Source: Candidatus Krumholzibacteriota bacterium
Lineage (GTDB): Bacteria > Krumholzibacteriota > Krumholzibacteriia > Krumholzibacteriales > WJIX01
Direction: 5' to 3'
Length of the DNA stretch: 64,000 nt
Assembly: GCA_034520215.1 (NCBI GenBank)
Contig: JAXHNR010000002.1
Span: 78,060 to 142,059 of the forward strand
Each line of letters begins with the position of its first letter. The first letter of the stretch is position 1. Positions 38,869-59,578 of this stretch are shown here, piece by piece. Below the pieces are notes generated by a model. It was not told where the DNA came from. It saw nothing but the letters and a program-made list of their open reading frames with translations, and searched no databases. The position numbers and the translations under genes are program-made.

Positions 38869-39384
38869 TCAGGTCCAGGACCGAACAATGAATATCACGA
38901 GTATTCCCGTCGCGATGGCGAACTTGGCGAAAAAGGCCCATAGCTTGCCGACGAATGCCCAGAACCCCACGTTGATAGCGTTCTCCATCTTCTTGTACTG
39001 GATGTATTCGGCGGCTACCGCCCCGGCGAAGGCTCCGAACAGCCCGAAGATCACGCTTCCTATGACCGGCATGGCGGACGTCCCCAGCACAGCTCCGACA
39101 ATGCCGCCAGCCAGCGCCCCGACAGCACCCCACTTCGAGGCGCCTTTCTTAATCGCGACGGCCGACCCAAGCAGCACTTCTATGACCTCCCCGATCACCA
39201 CCAGCACGACCATCACCACCCACCACTGCCACCCGATAACGGTGAACTTGTTGGCCAGATCATATATTAATATGACTCCCAGACTAATCCATCCTCCCGG
39301 CAGTCCCGTAAATATGAGAAGATTTAAGAGGAATACCAAAAAATAGAGGAGGACGAGTCCCGTGTGCTGCAGAACCGATACCAA
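38869..39384 (-). CDS. DUF456-family small membrane protein
   Basis: Gly/Ala-rich TM helices, N-terminal FTGLPGGW motif typical of DUF456; markedly higher GC and different codon usage than flanks. Confidence 0.55.
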   Translation of the reverse strand: MVSVLQHTGLVLLYFLVFLLNLLIFTGLPGGWISLGVILIYDLANKFTVIGWQWWVVMVVLVVIGEVIEVLLGSAVAIKKGASKWGAVGALAGGIVGAVLGTSAMPVIGSVIFGLFGAFAGAVAAEYIQYKKMENAINVGFWAFVGKLWAFFAKFAIATGILVIFIVRSWT

Positions 39385-39530
39385 AACCTGCTCCTTTCAC
39401 AAGTCCATATAACATGAACAACTCGCCGTAATGAAACAGCCGCCGACTAGAACGATGACAGCTCTTATCTTGAACATGAACCTTAAAAATTCTAAGACAT
39501 CCGTCTTTTTATGTCAACGGCATCCCGGCC

Positions 39531-39837
39531 AGGACTTTCCCCAATTTTTATTACCACGCAGGAGATTAATTAATTCGTAAAGTATGCGGCTGAATGATAT
39601 TTTCAAAATCGTGGTCAATTCCCCCGGCGAGTGAATTGTACGCTCTGCGCCTCGGGCTCGCTCTTTCTGCCCCTTCGGGTCAGAAATCCTTGCCCGCTCG
39701 CCCTCCGGAGGGTTTTGAAAATATCATTCAGCCGCACTCATCAGCAATGAAAGCCCTATTCCACTTACTAATCCTGATAACTGATTGTATCTCGCAATGT
39801 TATTACAATACTTGCCGAATTTTCAGAGGGAACTCCA
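39531..39837 (+). mobile_element. 307-bp MITE-like non-autonomous element, copy 1, flanked by 10-bp direct repeat CATCCCGGCC
   Basis: Direct repeats at 39521..39530 and 39838..39847; ends GGACTTTCCCC.../...GGGAACTCC; internal 25-bp inverted repeat GCGGCTGAATGATATTTTCAAAA / TTTTGAAAATATCATTCAGCCGC around a GC-rich core; ~85-90% identical to copies 2 and 3 over the 3' two-thirds. Confidence 0.7.
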
Positions 39838-39959
39838 ACATCCCGGCCTCTCAGAAACAGACATAATATAAAGAAGTTGCCTTGAGGCCTTCTTTGGCTT
39901 ATAATCTCAAACCGTTAAATAATTAGCTTGTTTTTTATAACCGGTCTGGATGTTTACGA

Positions 39960-52685: not shown

Positions 52686-53405
52686 TCACCGCTTTATAAT
52701 TTCTACCATTTCCCTTACAGCCCGCTCAATTCCCACAAATACGGCTCTCGAGATGATGCTGTGCCCGATATTAAGCTCTTCTATTTCTGTAATCAGCACT
52801 ACCGGCCTGACGTTATGGTATGTAAGTCCGTGTCCGGCGTGAACGTGAAGCCCGTATTTGACTGCTGTTTTCGCCGCGTCTTCCAGTCTTCCCAGTGCGG
52901 CATCACGATCCCCGCGGCTGATATTCGCGTATTCTCCCGTGTGGATTTCTATCGCGTCAAAACCCATCTTCGCCGCCGCCTTTATCTGGGAAATTTCCGG
53001 ATCTATAAAAGCCGTTGTCTTTATCCCGCCCCCTTTCAGAGCCGTCACAATATCGCCGTATTTACTGCCGTCGGCGAGAAGGTTCAATCCGCCCTCAGTT
53101 GTCAGCTCCTCTCTCTTCTCGGGAACCAGCGTTACAGAATCTGGATGCATTGCCATGGCTATCTCCTGCATTTCGGCACTCGCCGCCATCTCCTGGTTGA
53201 CCATAGTCTGAGCCATTTCACTTATAAGCCTGACGTCACGGTTCTGTATATGCCTTCTGTCTTCCCTCAAATGAAAGGTTATCTGATCGGCGCCCCCCTG
53301 TTCAGCCATCATCGCGGCGGTCACGGGATCCGGTTCAATGGTCTTTCTTGCTTCTCTCAAAGTGGCAATATGGTCTATATTTACTCCCAGTCTCATACGT
53401 TTCAA
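52686..53405 (-). CDS. pdxJ: Pyridoxine 5'-phosphate synthase PdxJ
   Basis: MRLGVNIDHIATLREAR...PDPV...HLREDRRHI closely matches the PdxJ N-terminus. Confidence 0.9.
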   Translation of the reverse strand: MKRMRLGVNIDHIATLREARKTIEPDPVTAAMMAEQGGADQITFHLREDRRHIQNRDVRLISEMAQTMVNQEMAASAEMQEIAMAMHPDSVTLVPEKREELTTEGGLNLLADGSKYGDIVTALKGGGIKTTAFIDPEISQIKAAAKMGFDAIEIHTGEYANISRGDRDAALGRLEDAAKTAVKYGLHVHAGHGLTYHNVRPVVLITEIEELNIGHSIISRAVFVGIERAVREMVEIIKR

Positions 53406-53415
53406 ATCCGCCTCC

Positions 53416-54660
53416 TTATCCTTTGCTGTTTTTTGATATCCTCGGTATCTCCCTTAAATTTACAAAACTTATCCCCCTTTTTCCAGCTTCGTCTTCCATC
53501 CACAGCAGATCTTTGAAACTTTCCCGCCTTACATGCAGAATCCCGAGCGCCCAGCCTCTTCTTTCCGCGATATCCATTATTTTCACCATATTACTCCTGA
53601 CATCCGCCCCCCTGTTATCGAGAAAAATATCGTTCCTCAGAGACGGCATGCCCATTGAAGGGGCGATTTTACCCGCGACCGACTTAGAAGAGGTAAGACT
53701 GTCGAAAAAGAAGAGGTTGTGCTTTCGGCATACCGAGAGGACCGCTTTCATCACCCTTGAATCCTCGGTAGCTTTTGACCCCTGATGATTGTTCATTCCC
53801 ACAACTCCCGGGGTATTAGAGATCGCGTCTTCAACAATTCCTTTAATCCTCTCATCACTCATAGAGACCCGCACAACAGGAACGCTGCCGCAGTCATCCG
53901 CTCCCCCTCTGGGTTCCATGGGCAGGTGACACAAAGCATCTTTCCCGGCTTTGTCTGCAAGCCGGCAGATATCCTTTGAATATTTAAGCCCCGGTATGAC
54001 AGATACGGTAATGTTTATATCAAGCCCGAGAAAATCCCTCACCAGTCTATTGTTGAAAAAACCGAAATCATCCACCACTAATGCCACAACCGGCCGCTTT
54101 TCAGGAGCAAGAACAGCATCAGCGCTTTTTGATATAATACACCTGTGAGTAACGCGGTTTCTTGTCCCTATCTCCATCTCTATTTTGTTTCCGGAGTCCC
54201 TTTCATAACAGCTTCTGACGCGCCCCCCTATTTCTTCGACCTTCATGTCTATTATATTATTTATCTTTATCAATGAACAGTCGGCGGGCACGTTGGTTCT
54301 CACAAGATATATATACCCGGATTCTACTCTCTCACCCGGTATGATCTCAATCGTATCCTTCTTGATTCCGTATTGTTTAAGAGCTTCCAGAAGACTGCCG
54401 GCGATATCTCTCCGTACATCTTCGTACTTTCCGCCGAAACCCATATCAAGCAAAAATATTCTTCCGTGAGTGGTGCTGAAATATCTTGCCGTTCCAAAGG
54501 CAATTATGACAAGAAGTGCGAGAAGCCCCGCGAATATCTTGAGTCTTGCCGCTATCTGCTTCTTTGTTTTCCGCTTCTTCGCGGCCAATTGGAAGTCTCC
54601 CTTCGAAATAGAATAGTATTTGCCGTTATAGAAGATGATCGTATGACGAGCGCGCGGCAC
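53416..54660 (-). CDS. Divergent polysaccharide deacetylase family protein (YibQ-like) with N-terminal TM segment
   Basis: TM near the N-terminus; C-terminal VALVVDDFGFF...HLPMEP YibQ/DUF610-type motifs. Confidence 0.6.
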   Translation of the reverse strand: MPRARHTIIFYNGKYYSISKGDFQLAAKKRKTKKQIAARLKIFAGLLALLVIIAFGTARYFSTTHGRIFLLDMGFGGKYEDVRRDIAGSLLEALKQYGIKKDTIEIIPGERVESGYIYLVRTNVPADCSLIKINNIIDMKVEEIGGRVRSCYERDSGNKIEMEIGTRNRVTHRCIISKSADAVLAPEKRPVVALVVDDFGFFNNRLVRDFLGLDINITVSVIPGLKYSKDICRLADKAGKDALCHLPMEPRGGADDCGSVPVVRVSMSDERIKGIVEDAISNTPGVVGMNNHQGSKATEDSRVMKAVLSVCRKHNLFFFDSLTSSKSVAGKIAPSMGMPSLRNDIFLDNRGADVRSNMVKIMDIAERRGWALGILHVRRESFKDLLWMEDEAGKRGISFVNLREIPRISKNSKG

Positions 54661-54723
54661 CTCGCGCAGTGCATGGATTATAAATACTCCGCGGGTGCAA
54701 TGTCAAGAGAGGTAAAATATTTT

Positions 54724-55030
54724 GTGGAGTTTCCCCAATTTTTATAACCTATAAGGTAGTCGATGATTTGTAACAGTATGCGGCTGATTGATATTTTCAA
54801 AATCGTGGTCGATTTCCCCGGCGAGGAAACCGCCACTCCCACCTCGGGCTCGCTCTTTCTGCCCCTTCGGGCCAGAAATCCTTGCCCGCTCGCCCTCCGG
54901 AGGGTTTTGAAAATATCAATCAGCCGCACTCATCAGCAATGAAAGCCCTATTCCACTTACCAATCCTGATAACTGATTGTATCTCGCAATGTTATTACAA
55001 TACTTGCCGAATTTTCAGAGGGAACTCCAA
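54724..55030 (+). mobile_element. 307-bp MITE-like element, copy 2, flanked by 14-bp direct repeat AGGTAAAATATTTT
   Basis: Direct repeats 54710..54723 and 55031..55044; ends GTGGAGTTTCCCC.../...GAGGGAACTCCAA; internal inverted repeat GCGGCTGATTGATATTTTCAAAA / TTTTGAAAATATCAATCAGCCGC (compensatory changes relative to copy 1). Confidence 0.75.
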
Positions 55031-55044
55031 AGGTAAAATATTTT

Positions 55045-55093
55045 CGAGCTCTCAGGGGAGAGCTGTAAAAAAGCCCTCTGTTTTCGAGGGCTT
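55045..55093 (-). terminator. Rho-independent terminator(s) downstream of lipoprotein gene 55137..55793
   Basis: On the minus strand AGCCCTC-GAAAACA-GAGGGCT followed by TTTTTTAC; a second hairpin CAGCTCTC-CCCT-GAGAGCTC just downstream. Confidence 0.55.
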
Positions 55094-55136
55094 GAATATG
55101 AGAATTATAAATCTTTTTATAATTAGTTCCGGCGCA

Positions 55137-55793
55137 CTATTTGGGCACATCCCGCGCACGGTATAAAAGATACTTTTCCGGATCTTCGGGGTCGGGGCCG
55201 ATGAAAAATTCAACATCGGAATCTCCGTTGTAGATTTTTGTCTCTCCCGGATTATCAGGGTCAGGTAATTCAAAGGTAAAAAAGTAATTTACCTTTTTAC
55301 TCCAGAAACCATCTCCCATACCACTCTCTTCAGTCCAGTCAGAGTCAAGACCAGAATATTCACTCAGAGTAATGTTTAATGTTCCTACGGCATTATTGAA
55401 TATTCCTTGTGTCCCCATCCACTCCTCTTGGTACGAAAGGATTTCCCCATATTCACTTACATCAGTTGGCTGATTGTACCAGATATAGCCGTCAGAAAAT
55501 TCCGGTTCCGGCCGCTGATCCGGTTCAAGAAGCAGTTCCTTGTACTTTTCTATATCTTTTTCCTCATAGACCCTGTCTATAATTTCAATACAATGATCCT
55601 TCTCCGTTCGATCGGGCCACGGTTCTTCATTTACCGGCTGATCTGTTGTTTCCTTTGGGTCAAGTATACATCCTGATGTTATAATAACCGAGAAAATCAA
55701 GGTTAAACTCAGTGCCGCCTGCAGTAATCTTCTAATCTTCATTGTCTGTATACCTCCTGGGCACATACAAATCACATGTTTATAATACCACAT
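55137..55793 (-). CDS. Acidic lipoprotein (218 aa), bracketed by element copies 2 and 3
   Basis: Signal + lipobox IITSGC; Asp/Glu-rich mature part; own terminator. Confidence 0.6.
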   Translation of the reverse strand: MWYYKHVICMCPGGIQTMKIRRLLQAALSLTLIFSVIITSGCILDPKETTDQPVNEEPWPDRTEKDHCIEIIDRVYEEKDIEKYKELLLEPDQRPEPEFSDGYIWYNQPTDVSEYGEILSYQEEWMGTQGIFNNAVGTLNITLSEYSGLDSDWTEESGMGDGFWSKKVNYFFTFELPDPDNPGETKIYNGDSDVEFFIGPDPEDPEKYLLYRARDVPK

Positions 55794-55830
55794 ATATAAA
55801 TAATATACAAGCTTGAAAATAATATTACTA

Positions 55831-56137
55831 TGTGGAGTTTCCCCAATTTTTATAACCTATAAGGTAGTCGATGATTTGTAACAGTATGCGGCTGATTGAT
55901 ATTTTCAAAATCGTGGTCAATTCCCCCGGCGAGGGAATTGCCACTCCCGCCTCGGGCTCGCTCTTTCTGCCCCTTCGGGTCAGAAATCCTTGCCCGCTCG
56001 CCCTCCGGAGGGTTTTGAAAATATCAAACAGCCGCACTCATCAGCAATGAAAGCCCTATTCCACTTACCAATCCTGATAACTGATTGTATCTCGAAAAGT
56101 TATTACAATACTTGCCGAATTTTCAGAGGAAACTCCT
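55831..56137 (+). mobile_element. 307-bp MITE-like element, copy 3, flanked by 9-bp direct repeat TATTACTAT
   Basis: Direct repeats 55822..55830 and 56138..56146; hairpin GTGGTCAATTCCC-CCGGCGAG-GGGAATTGCCAC at 55913..55943; inner inverted repeat 55883..55911 / 56013..56037. Confidence 0.75.
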
Positions 56138-56180
56138 GTATTACTATATATCTTAAAAAAACTGCCACCCTGTTTATTTA

Positions 56181-56783
56181 TCAATCCGCACCGCTTAGTC
56201 TTCCGCGCAGAAGTCCAGACGTACCATAGTCTTGAAGGATATCCTTATCTTCCCACTCCACAAGCTTCCACCCCCCCTGACCTGCGGCTTCGAGTGTAAA
56301 TCTCGCCACACCCCCGTAAATTACCTCTCCTGAGCCTGAATCCAGCGTAATCAAATATTCCCCTTCAAACCACGGCTGATCCCCCTCGGCGTTCTCCTCA
56401 TCAAAGGAACCGCCGTTTTCAGTCCCTGAGCCGAAAAATATCTCCCTGCGGGCAGCATAATCCGATTTCAGCCGGTCGAGCATATTCATCTCCCGCTCTT
56501 TGTCCCATCCGCTTAGATCCGGATACTGCATTTCGTCCTCTGTCCGGGGGATAAATATGAAACCGTCGGAAATTGTTCTTTCGTAATTCGAGTTTCCGGG
56601 TTCCGAAAGGCCTGAGGACAGGTTCTTGAATATATCCCTTGGAACTTCGGGCTCCACCCAGGTGTCCTCACCTCCAGCTCCCGGGTCCTGCGCCTCTCTG
56701 GGTTCGAAAAGACATCCTCCCTGCGGCAGGGCGAACGCTGAAATCATCAAGCTCAAGAGTATTATACCTCTGATATTCCGCAT
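56181..56783 (-). CDS. Acidic lipoprotein (200 aa), possible distant paralog of 55137..55793
   Basis: Signal peptide ending ...FALPQGGC; acidic Gly-rich mature region; weak shared SDG[YF]I[WF] segment. Confidence 0.5.
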   Translation of the reverse strand: MRNIRGIILLSLMISAFALPQGGCLFEPREAQDPGAGGEDTWVEPEVPRDIFKNLSSGLSEPGNSNYERTISDGFIFIPRTEDEMQYPDLSGWDKEREMNMLDRLKSDYAARREIFFGSGTENGGSFDEENAEGDQPWFEGEYLITLDSGSGEVIYGGVARFTLEAAGQGGWKLVEWEDKDILQDYGTSGLLRGRLSGAD

Positions 56784-56795
56784 ACTTATCTTCTC

Positions 56796-58766
56796 CTAAA
56801 AATCAAACGTCAGTTTCATATTAATGTCCCAGTATTTTCTCATAGCCTCTGAGATGCGATTTCCGTAATTCCTTACATAAGCCACGTCAAGTTTTATGTT
56901 CCCGTTTCCCACTACATCTTTCTCCCCTTCGAAGCCGACCTTCAAAGTTCCTGAATCGTAGAAATTCGAGTTCGTAACGATCCTCTCTTCGTTCTCCACG
57001 CCGAGACTGTTCCTCTTTTCGGTCCGGAATAGCGCGCTTGAAAAGAGGTTGAGAAAATCGGCCGCTTTGTAATCAACATTCATCTTCAACCGGTGTTTGA
57101 AGTTTTCCCTCGTCCTGTTGTAATGTTTTTCGTCTTCAACGGTCAGGTAGCTTCCGGAATCCCTCATGTCGTACTTATGATTGATACCAAAGTTCAAACC
57201 CCTCTGAAACCTCATTTTTGCTTTCGTGTCAAGTATTGTCGTCCTGTCGAGGTAGTTCTGGTTTCTGTCGAATGTAAACTCTGTATATTCCATTTTTACC
57301 TCATAGCTCTGCGAAATGGTTATCCAGCCGGCCGGTTTGATGCTGAATTCCGGAATAAGCCTGTAAATATATTCAACATTATTATCACTGGACAGCGAGG
57401 CGTCGATATTCCTGGTTTCATACCTGCTGGCTTTAACTTCGACCTTCGCGTCAACATTTTCGAAAGGTTGCGCGGACATTTCCGCGCCGCCTCCATAATA
57501 GTAGTAATCCACGTCACGCGGGTTTTCCTCGTACTTCTTATAGAATTTCTGGCTTAACGACATGCGCCCGTTTGCCGAAATACTAAGGTCTTCACCGAGC
57601 ATCTGAGAAGCCCTGAATCCGAGCTTATTGTCATCCTCGCTGTAACTCGAAACAGAATTAAACCCGTAATCCATATCCGTTCTTGTCTTCTCAAACGTAA
57701 ATGTGGCGGAACCTCTTTCACTGAACTTGTAAATTGTATTCGCTTTAAGATTGTCCTTTGTGTAGCTTTTCGACAACCTCTTGTCCACATCGTATTCCTT
57801 GTCATCGAGTGAATGCTTGAATTCTATTTCCACCGTGACAAAACTGGCGGGCTTGAATCCCGAGTTTACACTTAAAATCTCTCCCTTTTCGTCTATCTGC
57901 TCCCTCTTCGCCAGCTCCGGGTTGTCAAGAATTTCAAGCGAATTTCCCCGCGGCGGCTCCACCCTTTTTATATCTCCGCTTTTCCTCTCATATTCTACCC
58001 TTAAATACTGTTCCTTACTCACCTCATAACCGGCATTTATCTTCAGCGTGTCGCTCCTGCTCGGTATGTCATTAAACTCGATCGAGCCGATCTCGCTGCT
58101 CTCCCTCGATATCAAAGTTCCGTACCCTCCGCTCAAGGTCAAGTCATCCCCTATCCTGTAGCTCATATGTCCGTGGGCCGAACCAGTCATTTTTCTGTCA
58201 TATTTAAAATCCTGCTGGCCCTGGACGTAATCACCCTCAAGAGAAATAAGTGATTTAGCGTTTTTGAAAATGGGTTTATTATAATCGAATTTTACCCCCG
58301 CCCTCTCATTTTCGAAGATAATATCCTTGCCGAACCTGGACAGCGAAACGGTCTTGCTCTTCCTGTAATCCTCTCCGGCGCTGAGAGAAATCATATAATG
58401 GTCCGGCTTGATCTTGACGGCTGAGTTCTTGAAACTCTCAGAGAGATCTACCATATTTCTCGTTCTGTTTTTTTCTTTTTTTACATTAATACTGCTGTTT
58501 ATAATCCATCCGCCTCCCGGATTGATAATCACCTTCATGCCGCTTCCCAGGCTTATTTTCGACATCCCGGCCCTAGATGTGACGTTCCATTTCGGAGTAA
58601 AAAGCCGGGGGTTTTCCTGATCAGCAGATTTTTCTGTTTTAAGCGTATCTCCCTTAGAAGAGCTCGCCGCGGTCATTGTCGAATCGCTTCCGGCGGCGCG
58701 TACTCCCGCGCTTCCGGCAAATAATAGCAGAATCATAACTCGAAGCAGCTCTTTACGCGATTTCAT
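56796..58766 (-). CDS. Outer-membrane beta-barrel protein (C-terminal Phe)
   Basis: Signal peptide (MKSRKELLRVMILLLFAGSAGVRA; internal start chosen over the track start at 58802), alternating amphipathic beta-strand pattern rich in Y/K/D, C-terminus ...LTFDF. Confidence 0.55.
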   Translation of the reverse strand: MKSRKELLRVMILLLFAGSAGVRAAGSDSTMTAASSSKGDTLKTEKSADQENPRLFTPKWNVTSRAGMSKISLGSGMKVIINPGGGWIINSSINVKKEKNRTRNMVDLSESFKNSAVKIKPDHYMISLSAGEDYRKSKTVSLSRFGKDIIFENERAGVKFDYNKPIFKNAKSLISLEGDYVQGQQDFKYDRKMTGSAHGHMSYRIGDDLTLSGGYGTLISRESSEIGSIEFNDIPSRSDTLKINAGYEVSKEQYLRVEYERKSGDIKRVEPPRGNSLEILDNPELAKREQIDEKGEILSVNSGFKPASFVTVEIEFKHSLDDKEYDVDKRLSKSYTKDNLKANTIYKFSERGSATFTFEKTRTDMDYGFNSVSSYSEDDNKLGFRASQMLGEDLSISANGRMSLSQKFYKKYEENPRDVDYYYYGGGAEMSAQPFENVDAKVEVKASRYETRNIDASLSSDNNVEYIYRLIPEFSIKPAGWITISQSYEVKMEYTEFTFDRNQNYLDRTTILDTKAKMRFQRGLNFGINHKYDMRDSGSYLTVEDEKHYNRTRENFKHRLKMNVDYKAADFLNLFSSALFRTEKRNSLGVENEERIVTNSNFYDSGTLKVGFEGEKDVVGNGNIKLDVAYVRNYGNRISEAMRKYWDINMKLTFDF

Positions 58767-59578
58767 CCTATCTCCAAATACGAAGAAAACAAACAGAACC
58801 AATCGTCCAGGGTTAATTCTTCAGCCCTCTTGCCGAGATCGACTCCCGAGAGGTCTTCGAGCCTTTCAGCCCTTTCCCTTTTATCAGAGTCTTTTTTTCT
58901 GAAAAGAACATTTCTCAGTTTCTTCCTCCGCTTCGAGAAGGCCTTCTTCAAAAACTTAAAATACAGGCCTCTGTTCTCCGGCGCCCTCTCCTTCGGGTCT
59001 CTGGTAAACCTGAGCACCGCGCTTTCTACGCCCGGCCGCGGGTAGAACGAGCCGGCGGCAACCTTCAGCACCTTCTCGACTTTCAGGTAGCTCTGCAGGA
59101 AAACGGACAGAAGGCCGCACCTGCTGTCACCCGGAAGAGCCGCGACGCGCTCTGAGACTTCCTTCTGGACCATAATAACCGCCCGGGTGCAGCCCTCCCA
59201 CTCGGGAATTCTGATGAGGATACTGCTGGTAAGCATATATGGAATATTTCCGATTACTTTGTACTCCTCCTTTTTTCTTCTCAGCGCTTCCGCTTCAAAA
59301 TCTACTTTAAGCACGTCTTCATTAACTACTTCAACCTTATCATCCCTGAAAACACACTTCAGATCATCGGCGAGGGCCCTGTCAATCTCAAAAACCACAA
59401 GGTCAGCTCCGCTTTCTGAAAGGCGCGAAGTAAGAGCTCCTTTGCCCGGACCTATCTCGAAGACTAATTCTTCAGGGCCGGGATCAATCGCCTCAACTAT
59501 TTTGCCCGCGACAGAGTCGGTCACAAGATAATTCTGCCCGAGGCTCTTTTTCGGTTTCCTGTGCATATTGTCTGCCAA
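58763..59578 (-). CDS. rsmA: 16S rRNA (adenine1518/1519-N6)-dimethyltransferase RsmA/KsgA
   Basis: KKSLGQNYLVTDSVAGKIV...VFEIGPGKGALT SAM-binding motifs. Confidence 0.85.
   Translation of the reverse strand: MADNMHRKPKKSLGQNYLVTDSVAGKIVEAIDPGPEELVFEIGPGKGALTSRLSESGADLVVFEIDRALADDLKCVFRDDKVEVVNEDVLKVDFEAEALRRKKEEYKVIGNIPYMLTSSILIRIPEWEGCTRAVIMVQKEVSERVAALPGDSRCGLLSVFLQSYLKVEKVLKVAAGSFYPRPGVESAVLRFTRDPKERAPENRGLYFKFLKKAFSKRRKKLRNVLFRKKDSDKRERAERLEDLSGVDLGKRAEELTLDDWFCLFSSYLEIG

Follow-up and report, generated by a model that had tools for sequence, protein, structure and literature searches.

The window analysed here is a stretch of 64,000 nt from a Candidatus Krumholzibacteriota bacterium (assembly GCA_034520215.1, contig JAXHNR010000002.1, positions 78,060–142,059 of the forward strand), in which an acidic lipoprotein gene is bracketed by two direct repeats and a third copy of the same repeat lies elsewhere. 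The three copies are very probably independent insertions of a MITE (miniature inverted-repeat transposable element) of ~307 bp that is presumably moved by an IS4-family transposase, inserts close to promoters and carries an RNA-like structured module. A sequence-only reading of this DNA had described the two repeats around the lipoprotein gene as copies of a mobile element and as a potential switch for a surface protein. The first part of that description is upheld by the terminal inverted repeats, by the target-site duplications of the individual copies and by the empty sites in a relative that are presented below.

Anatomy of the element and empty sites in relatives

A repeat scan of the whole window combined with alignment identified one family of ~300 nt with three copies, all in the same orientation (Table 1), the boundaries of which were set by reading the element ends in the sequence and the alignment. 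The minus orientation given to the copies means that the transposase-sense strand of the parent insertion sequence (IS) lies on the minus strand of the window. On the plus strand, copy 3 starts with GTGGAGTTTCCCC and ends with GGAAACTCCTG. Copies 2 and 3 are identical at 295 of 307 positions (96%) and each is about 91% identical to copy 1; a 20-nt motif from the element end has three matches in the window, with 0.02 expected by chance. The direct repeats reported around the lipoprotein gene are thus real. They are 1108 bp apart from start to start, and the 801 bp between them (55031–55831) hold a single minus-strand gene and its terminators and nothing else, as had also been reported and as both the repeat scan and the open reading frames (ORFs) indicate.

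The terminal inverted repeats are short and imperfect (~10–18 bp); one end reads TTGGAGTT(T)CCCCAA and the other its complement, GGGGAAACTCCAA, and each copy is flanked by its own target-site duplication (Table 1). No ORF is conserved within the element across the three aligned copies; coding potential was considered for a 59-aa plus-strand ORF and an 83-aa minus-strand ORF and was rejected on account of a frame-breaking 2-nt indel in copy 1.

The uninterrupted sites can be seen in a relative (contig L040; outer-membrane protein 86% identical) which has the identical gene order (ksgA, outer-membrane protein, lipoprotein, lipoprotein, polysaccharide deacetylase, pdxJ), including the lipoprotein gene, without copies 2 and 3. 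The intergenic gaps there are 97 and 274 bp, which is too short for the element. When aligned by eye, the copy 3 site of the relative has one unduplicated, diverged target, ACCGCAATA, where the window has ATAGTAATA twice, and the copy 2 site has one AAATATTTTACCT where the window has AAAATATTTTACCT twice. A second relative (L041; 68% identical) keeps the lipoprotein gene and lacks copy 3. Taken together, the individual duplications and the empty sites in L040 show that copies 2 and 3 are separate, recent insertions of the MITE, and the retention of the gene in both element-free relatives shows that the lipoprotein gene is ancestral at this locus.

The element is dispersed beyond the window. 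Five further copies lie on five contigs of the Candidatus Krumholzibacteriales metagenome-assembled genome (MAG) JAWODM01, with 92–94% identity and duplications of 8–10 bp, and more were found on the metagenome contigs L021, L026, L030 and L038. The features expected of a MITE are therefore all present: small size without a transposase gene, terminal inverted repeats, a target-site duplication with an empty site, dispersed copies and an autonomous element with the same ends. One copy in a related MAG (L002:6474–6539) stops inside the loop of the fifth helix of the module and continues as unrelated sequence (CACTGGTATAACCTAGTGTCAAGACGC...) to the contig end, which marks either a second insertion or an assembly break.

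The same evidence makes it extremely improbable that copies 2 and 3 and the gene between them form a composite transposon with which the lipoprotein gene arrived at this locus or which can carry it elsewhere as one piece. The outer ends of such a structure, which in the transposase sense are the left end of copy 3 and the right end of copy 2, would be usable in principle, and among Tn3-derived elements composite structures with a MITE at either end have been documented (PMC13367494). However, the duplications flank each copy separately, the outer flanks differ (ATAGTAATA versus AAAATATTTTACCT on the minus strand) and the gene stands in the same place in L040 and L041 without the element, so it did not arrive as part of a unit.

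The parent insertion sequence and its transposase

A complete parent IS of ~1.5 kb with a 418-aa transposase ORF is present on metagenome contig L019 (497–1974). The IS copies on L019, L002/L005, L024 and L036 have a right end exactly as in the MITE, and on both L002 and L019 this end abuts the stop codon of the transposase gene; in the related MAG an ORF cut by the contig edge has the MITE right end immediately behind its stop codon. By inspection, the left ~100 nt of the MITE bear a looser resemblance to the left end of the IS, which includes a conserved AAGTGGAAT motif. The shared exact right end and looser left end identify the MITE as a non-autonomous derivative of this IS, presumably moved in trans by the transposase of the parent.

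The 418-aa transposase matches the Pfam family DDE_Tnp_1 (PF01609) with E = 3.9e-8 and 33.7 bits, which is above the 23-bit cut-off. The L019 protein carries the Y(2)R(3)E(6)K motif, as YIKRWDVEETIRCIK, that defines the IS4 family (PMC2266710). An AlphaFold model built with 43 homologues (mean pLDDT of 74) has Tn5 transposase as its best Foldseek match (E = 1.5e-18, TM score of 0.67), and duplications of about one helical turn (8–12 bp at most sites and 14 bp at one) fit the same family. The transposase belongs to a distant IS4-family clade outside the named subgroups. Searches of metagenomes returned 2,357 homologues at E <= 1e-20, mostly on contigs of ~1.5 kb, as expected for a repeated element; none was found in the plasmid collection, and short fragments of the transposase had no match in Pfam or NCBIfam. 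An element of the IS200/IS605 or IS110 type with a guide RNA was considered and rejected in view of the inverted ends, the duplications and the DDE transposase of the parent.

Among described elements, the IS231-derived cassettes of the Bacillus cereus group, which are IS4-family MITEs, are likewise short and non-autonomous, with IS4-family ends, duplications of about one turn and mobilization in trans. They differ in that what travels as the passenger here is no gene but a conserved structured non-coding module, and in that the host is an uncultured member of the Krumholzibacteriota. The review of the IS4 family also describes relatives of IS231 in which extra passenger DNA separates the transposase gene from the left end (PMC2266710).

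Two further observations concern the autonomous elements. The left ~125 nt of the IS (L019:497–698; also on L005, L061 and L064) contain an internal inverted copy of the terminus, GAAAAATTGGGGGAACTTCCTG, and, in the same four contigs, a hairpin which then pairs the ribosome-binding site of the transposase gene (GGATCTCCTTT...AAAGGAGATCC, then ATG). This looks like a guard against activation by external transcription. On L043 (105–1040) and L044 (105–1157) an IS110-family transposase gene adjoins the IS4-like element, forming mixed transposon clusters.

Insertion upstream of -35 boxes

Nearly all insertion sites share a common layout outward from the right end: a duplication of 8–14 bp, then 3 bp, then a TTGACA-like hexamer and usually TAnnnT 16–18 nt later. 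At copy 2 the duplication AAAATATTTTACCT is separated by CTC from the -35 box of a perfect sigma-70-type promoter, the downstream gene being that for the deacetylase. Copy 1 has the duplication GCCGGGATG, the spacer CCG and then, 3 bp after the duplication, the -35 box of a promoter-like sequence upstream of an ORF for a 171-aa membrane protein (38869–39384). At copy 3 the duplication ATAGTAATA is followed by TTA, TTTTCA (55819–55814), 17 nt and TATATG; an overlapping candidate for the lipoprotein promoter, TTGTAT (55810–55805), 17 nt and TATTAT (55787–55782), is conserved.

The same layout recurs well beyond the window. A match of at least 5/6 to TTGACA lies 13–19 nt from the end in 22 of 46 unique right-end flanks, compared with 3.6% expected (P = 4e-20), and in 18 of these 22 the offset is 13–15 nt. 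Such a box was seen at only three of 26 other ends, and these three read as right ends of the P0105 subfamily that were missed by the filter, the terminus being preceded by T's and not A's. Exactly 3 bp separate the duplication from the hexamer, by inspection, at ten of the 11 sites for which both copies of the duplication could be read. A -10-like TAnnnT follows 16–18 nt past the box in 18 of 26 cases; for random TTGACA-like hexamers taken from the same DNA the figure is 5.1%. Autonomous copies of two transposase subfamilies that are only ~55% identical in protein sequence obey the rule as well; examples are found upstream of rplU, a TetR gene and an epimerase gene, one lies directly after a terminator, and the downstream gene is always co-directional. 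The length of the duplication varies from 8 to 14 bp while its promoter-proximal boundary is constant, which indicates that the strand transfer near the promoter is positioned and that the other is loose.

We infer that the transposase, alone or via sigma-70 RNA polymerase, would read the -35 box and insert the element 3 bp upstream of it in one orientation. The insertions leave the core promoters intact and shift upstream activator or UP-element DNA by 307 bp. A sigma-factor-like domain in the N-terminus of the transposase was considered and rejected: Pfam matches were weak and scattered, and the PDB profile match to SigA was non-significant (E = 0.5) and fell outside the -35-binding region. 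Residues 40–62 of the transposase are poorly modelled.

The pattern could instead reflect survivorship, with random or AT-biased insertion after which only harmless copies upstream of promoters persist. Purifying selection certainly purges insertions in genes, most copies do lie in short intergenic regions, and most boxes belong to real promoters, complete with a -10 element, which survival would enrich as well. Survivorship cannot, however, give a fixed distance of 3 bp, a single orientation and the absence of boxes on the left-end side, and the rule is kept across subfamilies of ~55% identity in unrelated hosts. In addition, sequence-directed targeting with conserved target arms is known in members of IS4/IS4Sa (PMC2266710). 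We therefore regard survivorship as an improbable explanation of the pattern and favour choice of the target by the element.

Fixed-distance insertion next to promoters has parallels in eukaryotes. The retroelements Ty3, Ty1 and Tf1 integrate upstream of transcription start regions, a short and constant distance away, and so spare coding sequence, their integrases being tethered by transcription factors; the promoter-upstream position at a fixed distance is shared with the present element, and tethering is the mode of theirs. In bacteria, class C group II introns home behind terminators, and IS1397 and ISKpn1 insert in repetitive extragenic palindromic (REP) sequences. ISPpu9, of the IS110 family, also inserts in REP sequences (PMC12288879). 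These elements likewise use a recurrent non-coding signal as a safe site and so reach many oriented intergenic copies; the present element differs in its signal, the -35 box of a promoter, and in its enzyme, a duplication-forming DDE transposase.

Within the IS4 family there is a likeness to IS4 itself and ISRm22 (subgroups IS4/IS4Sa), which share the conservation of sequence outside the duplicated target, the 5'-CA ends and the size of ~1.5 kb (PMC2266710). In these subgroups the target arms are strongly conserved in some members and the duplications are variable (10–13 bp for IS4 and 8–10 bp for IS4Sa; PMC2266710). Unlike in IS4 and ISRm22, the conserved arm here is a generic sigma-70 -35 hexamer, found on a single side, at a constant 3 bp and in strict orientation. 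The word 'promoter' is absent from the review of the IS4 family (PMC2266710), and our literature searches returned no report of a bacterial element directed to -35 boxes.

On five short metagenome contigs (L043, L046, L050, L053 and L055) a right end, a spacer of one duplication length and a left end follow in direct succession. These junctions are probably assembly artefacts arising via the shared duplication; transposon circles or tandem dimers are possible.

Bracketing of the lipoprotein gene

The bracketing can be understood from the position rule. The lipoprotein and deacetylase promoters both lie on the minus strand, and if each was struck then two same-orientation copies would bracket the gene. 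The three copies are co-oriented because their target promoters point the same way, and with promoter insertion in a fixed orientation bracketing is thus a by-product whenever successive promoters are struck.

The sequence-only reading had suggested that copy 3 might supply or disrupt the promoter of the lipoprotein gene. Copy 3 does adjoin the promoter region, but it was inserted upstream of an existing promoter: the promoter-like boxes are no part of the element but fall in the stretch from the duplication to the start codon, and are kept in the element-free relatives, so the suggested effect on the promoter is not supported. The gene itself is present as described; its length, given as 218 aa, is most likely 201 aa, since an AGGAGG precedes the ATG at 55742 by 8 nt, the sequence behind it encodes a signal peptide and lipobox (ITSGC), and NCBI calls the identical protein at 201 aa. 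With this start site copy 3 ends 89 bp, and not 38 bp, upstream of the start codon. Copy 3 is also adjacent to the stop codon of the neighbouring lipoprotein gene, at a distance corrected from 44 to 42 bp.

The proposal that drew attention to the locus was that RecA-dependent recombination between the direct repeats turns the enclosed surface lipoprotein on or off or changes its copy number. Deletion or duplication by RecA between 307-bp repeats of 96% identity is physically possible, as it is for any dispersed repeat, and repeats of this length, identity and direct orientation are enough for homologous recombination. The enclosed gene, moreover, is a fast-evolving acidic lipoprotein (66–68% identity, against 84–86% for its neighbours), a kind of protein that is sometimes varied. 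Against this, both copies retain their own matched duplications, from which it follows that copies 2 and 3 have not recombined in this lineage since insertion. The relatives have the gene without the repeats, so the arrangement is recent and lineage-specific and not a conserved device; it follows straight from promoter-targeted insertion; and a deletion would be an irreversible loss. In L040 and L041 the segment is neither lacking nor duplicated; the exact proteins of this locus occur in a single recorded assembly. A switch is accordingly very unlikely, and two insertions at successive promoters remain the preferred account of the bracketing.

A structured module within the MITE

Each copy contains a structured module, of 156 nt in copies 2 and 3, which scores between 170.8 and 190.7 bits with the covariance model (Table 1). 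A near-perfect closing stem of 23–28 bp surrounds a GC-rich core, with five helices in all. Both strands fold much better than shuffled sequences (z of about -6.6 to -6.8). In the diverged copies on L030, L038, L026 and L021 the junctions and loops are kept (GAGCGGGCAAGGAUUUCUG, AGAAAGAGCGAGCCCGAGG, the loop CUCGCCGGGG and ACnnCGAUUUUGAA) and the stems are altered with compensation. The covariance model was built from ten copies and recovered an eleventh, far more distant one on L021, which sits in a MITE with its own 12–14 bp duplication adjoining TTGACA.

In the alignment of all 11 sequences 95.2% of the cells are paired. Changes on both sides were found in 29 of 54 pairs, compared with 6.9 +/- 1.8 in shuffled alignments (none of 500 reached this value) and no more than ten in slid controls, and compensatory changes occur in all five helices. 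On the transposase-sense strand there are 32 G.U cells and seven A.C cells, the latter being those that would read as G.U on the opposite strand, which places the fold on the minus strand of the window, the direction of the downstream genes. These results suggest that the module most likely folds as an RNA read in the direction of the downstream genes, and it is a candidate for a new structured RNA, without a described relative, that is carried as cargo by the MITE.

No equivalent was found elsewhere. The ~160-nt module region is missing from every autonomous IS searched. In Rfam 15 no match reached the gathering score in the window, and nothing relevant appeared at E <= 10 for copy 2 or at E <= 1 for three diverged copies; a search for tRNA and tmRNA found none. 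No viral contig has the module, the three 19-mer matches being chance ones inside a phage ORF. A hammerhead ribozyme, hinted at by CUGAUGAG beside the outer stem in some copies, was rejected because the motif is not kept elsewhere and no GAAA follows the stem. A nested second MITE as the source of the inner palindrome was also rejected, since the stems vary and the core is conserved.

The closing stem might serve as a processing stalk, by which a core of ~105 nt would be freed from read-through transcripts or the transcript would be insulated, although this is a guess. At copy 3, which sits within an apparent operon, read-through would be allowed by the absence of a terminator after the gene for the 200-aa lipoprotein.

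The 3' arm of the closing stem (54787–54810, 55895–55918 and 39593–39616) keeps in its inner part an invariant TTTTGA(A/C)A, which is -35-like on the sense strand, and in some lineages TACTGT or TACTAT lies 16 nt past it. This sequence might act as an outward promoter or a binding site, or be no more than part of the junction.

A different interpretation of the module is as a DNA-level feature, such as a nested palindrome, a cruciform, a protein-binding site with arms kept by conversion or a fold of single-stranded DNA. The near-perfect inverted repeat of the outer stem (23–28 bp) would suit such a feature, the conserved TTGA(A/C)A in its inner part could be a DNA site, and neither a promoter or terminator for a discrete RNA nor an Rfam match was found. 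The pattern of change, however, is the reverse of that of a nested transposon, in that the stems vary with compensation while the junctions and loops are conserved; the four inner helices, which are not simple palindromes, also covary; and the excess of G.U pairs (32 versus 7) favours one strand. We also know of no IS4-type cut-and-paste transposition that uses internal single-stranded folds. A DNA-level feature is on balance unlikely, and an RNA is the reading that we prefer for the module.

The intergenic Correia elements of Neisseria, enterobacterial repetitive intergenic consensus (ERIC) sequences and bcr1 of Bacillus cereus are MITEs that are co-transcribed with neighbouring genes and form stable hairpins; these can be cut by RNase III and alter mRNA stability. 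Their hairpins arise mostly from the terminal repeats, whereas here a separate internal module of five helices covaries independently of the ends. A small-RNA gene that travels with an IS is known from ISPpu9/Ssr9 of Pseudomonas putida, where extra copies without the transposase also occur (PMC12288879). That system has an IS110-family recombinase, REP targets and circular intermediates, whereas in the present case the module occurs only in the non-autonomous derivative.

Points against the interpretation

Several observations weigh against one or other part of the overall interpretation. No transposase gene lies within the 64-kb window, so present mobility in this genome is unproven, and the best NCBIfam matches of the transposase, which are IS4 models, fall far short of their cut-offs, the top one giving 47.7 bits against 160. 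The targeting rule is broken at the sites on L022, L029, L054 and L064/L065; the box at copy 3 matches at only four of six positions (TTTTCA), with a better-conserved -35 candidate 9 bp further on; several of the short metagenome contigs are probably chimeras joined across the repeat; and purifying selection on insertions in genes adds to the pattern alongside any target choice. As regards the module, the covariation comes from approximately five independent lineages in an alignment that was fitted to the model, the arms of inverted repeats can stay complementary through DNA-level processes and a G.T bias would suit a single-stranded DNA fold too. A promoter search and inspection found no convincing conserved promoter or terminator inside the MITE, and a divergent gene lies upstream of copy 1, so read-through cannot supply an RNA there.

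Genes around the insertions

Both lipoproteins are acidic, as had been reported, with computed pI values of 4.2 and 4.3; a comparison of the two sequences shows that they are not paralogues. Family searches returned nothing for either of them or for the 656-aa outer-membrane protein. The enclosed lipoprotein is 66–68% identical to its orthologue in L040, whereas the adjacent lipoprotein and the outer-membrane protein reach 84% and 86%, respectively; the enclosed protein thus evolves faster than its neighbours, and only nine homologues were found. Its structure model is of low confidence (pLDDT of 65) and shows a weak likeness to NTF2-like folds. Of the two hairpins past its stop codon (55067–55093 and 55047–55064), the first precedes a T-run, like an intrinsic terminator, and coincides with the sole Rfam match there, a partial match to the terminator part of Trp_leader.

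In the stretch 54660–54677, the GTG start of the deacetylase gene lies only ~17 nt past the -10 box, which implies an almost leaderless transcript; in L040 its start codon is ~70 nt further from the promoter than in the window. The order ksgA, 656-aa outer-membrane protein, two lipoproteins, yibQ-like deacetylase and pdxJ is conserved between the window (52686–59578), L040 and L041, and in L040 pdxA lies ~9 kb upstream of ksgA. In Escherichia coli, lptD, surA, pdxA and ksgA are linked. By analogy, the unassigned outer-membrane protein and one lipoprotein might be LptD/LptE analogues, with no family match in support.

Table 1. Positions of the element copies, their modules and duplications, the adjoining promoters and the neighbouring genes in the window.
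Feature	Position	Strand	Basis or remarks
MITE copy 1	39530–39838	-	309 bp; repeat scan, alignment
MITE copy 2	54724–55030	-	307 bp; repeat scan, alignment
MITE copy 3	55832–56138	-	307 bp; repeat scan, alignment
Structured module in copy 1	39582–39739	-	Covariance model, 170.8 bits
Structured module in copy 2, 156 nt	54776–54931	-	Covariance model, 190.7 bits
Structured module in copy 3, 156 nt	55884–56039	-	Covariance model, 188 bits
Target-site duplication, copy 1	39521–39529 and 39839–39847	.	9 bp, CATCCCGGC (minus strand GCCGGGATG)
Target-site duplication, copy 2	54710–54723 and 55031–55044	.	14 bp, AGGTAAAATATTTT (minus strand AAAATATTTTACCT)
Target-site duplication, copy 3	55823–55831 and 56139–56147	.	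9 bp, TATTACTAT (minus strand ATAGTAATA)
Promoter-like TTGACA-17-TAGAAT	39489–39517	-	Upstream of ORF for 171-aa membrane protein
Deacetylase promoter, TTGACA-18-TATAAT	54677–54706	-	Perfect sigma-70 type; conserved in L040
Promoter region of 201-aa lipoprotein	55782–55819	-	Conserved in L040 and L041; box in use inferred
Polysaccharide deacetylase, divergent, downstream of copy 2	53416–54660	-	Pfam Polysacc_deac_2
Two hairpins past lipoprotein stop codon	55047–55093	-
Enclosed acidic lipoprotein, 201 aa (U5O15_07255)	55137–55742	-	Start-site signals; identical NCBI protein (P0153)
Acidic lipoprotein, 200 aa, upstream neighbour	56181–56783	-	ORF list, pI
Putative outer-membrane protein, 656 aa (U5O15_07265)	56796–58766	-	No family match

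Implications

The bracketing of the lipoprotein gene is in itself ordinary, being two recent MITE insertions that happen to flank a gene. For annotation, it illustrates that repeats in one orientation around a gene can arise as a by-product when an element prefers certain targets, and need not be a device. What the window contains is a new MITE from a distant clade of the IS4 family, and what is unusual about it is the combination of oriented, -35-proximal insertion with a covarying RNA-like cargo. The position rule is precise, oriented and common to a large metagenomic clade of transposases. If it reflects true target choice, the element would represent a promoter-homing DDE transposon of bacteria, with a bearing on how elements spare their hosts and rewire upstream regulatory DNA, and it would offer a lead for tools for orientation-specific, promoter-proximal insertion of DNA.

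The five-helix module is a candidate for a new class of RNA that has been spread to promoter-proximal sites. It is possible, and we suggest it only tentatively, that the IS4-like clade and its MITE together constitute an undescribed promoter-homing transposon that plants a conserved 156-nt RNA upstream of many promoters. If so, the planted RNA could act on neighbouring genes or be released as a small RNA.

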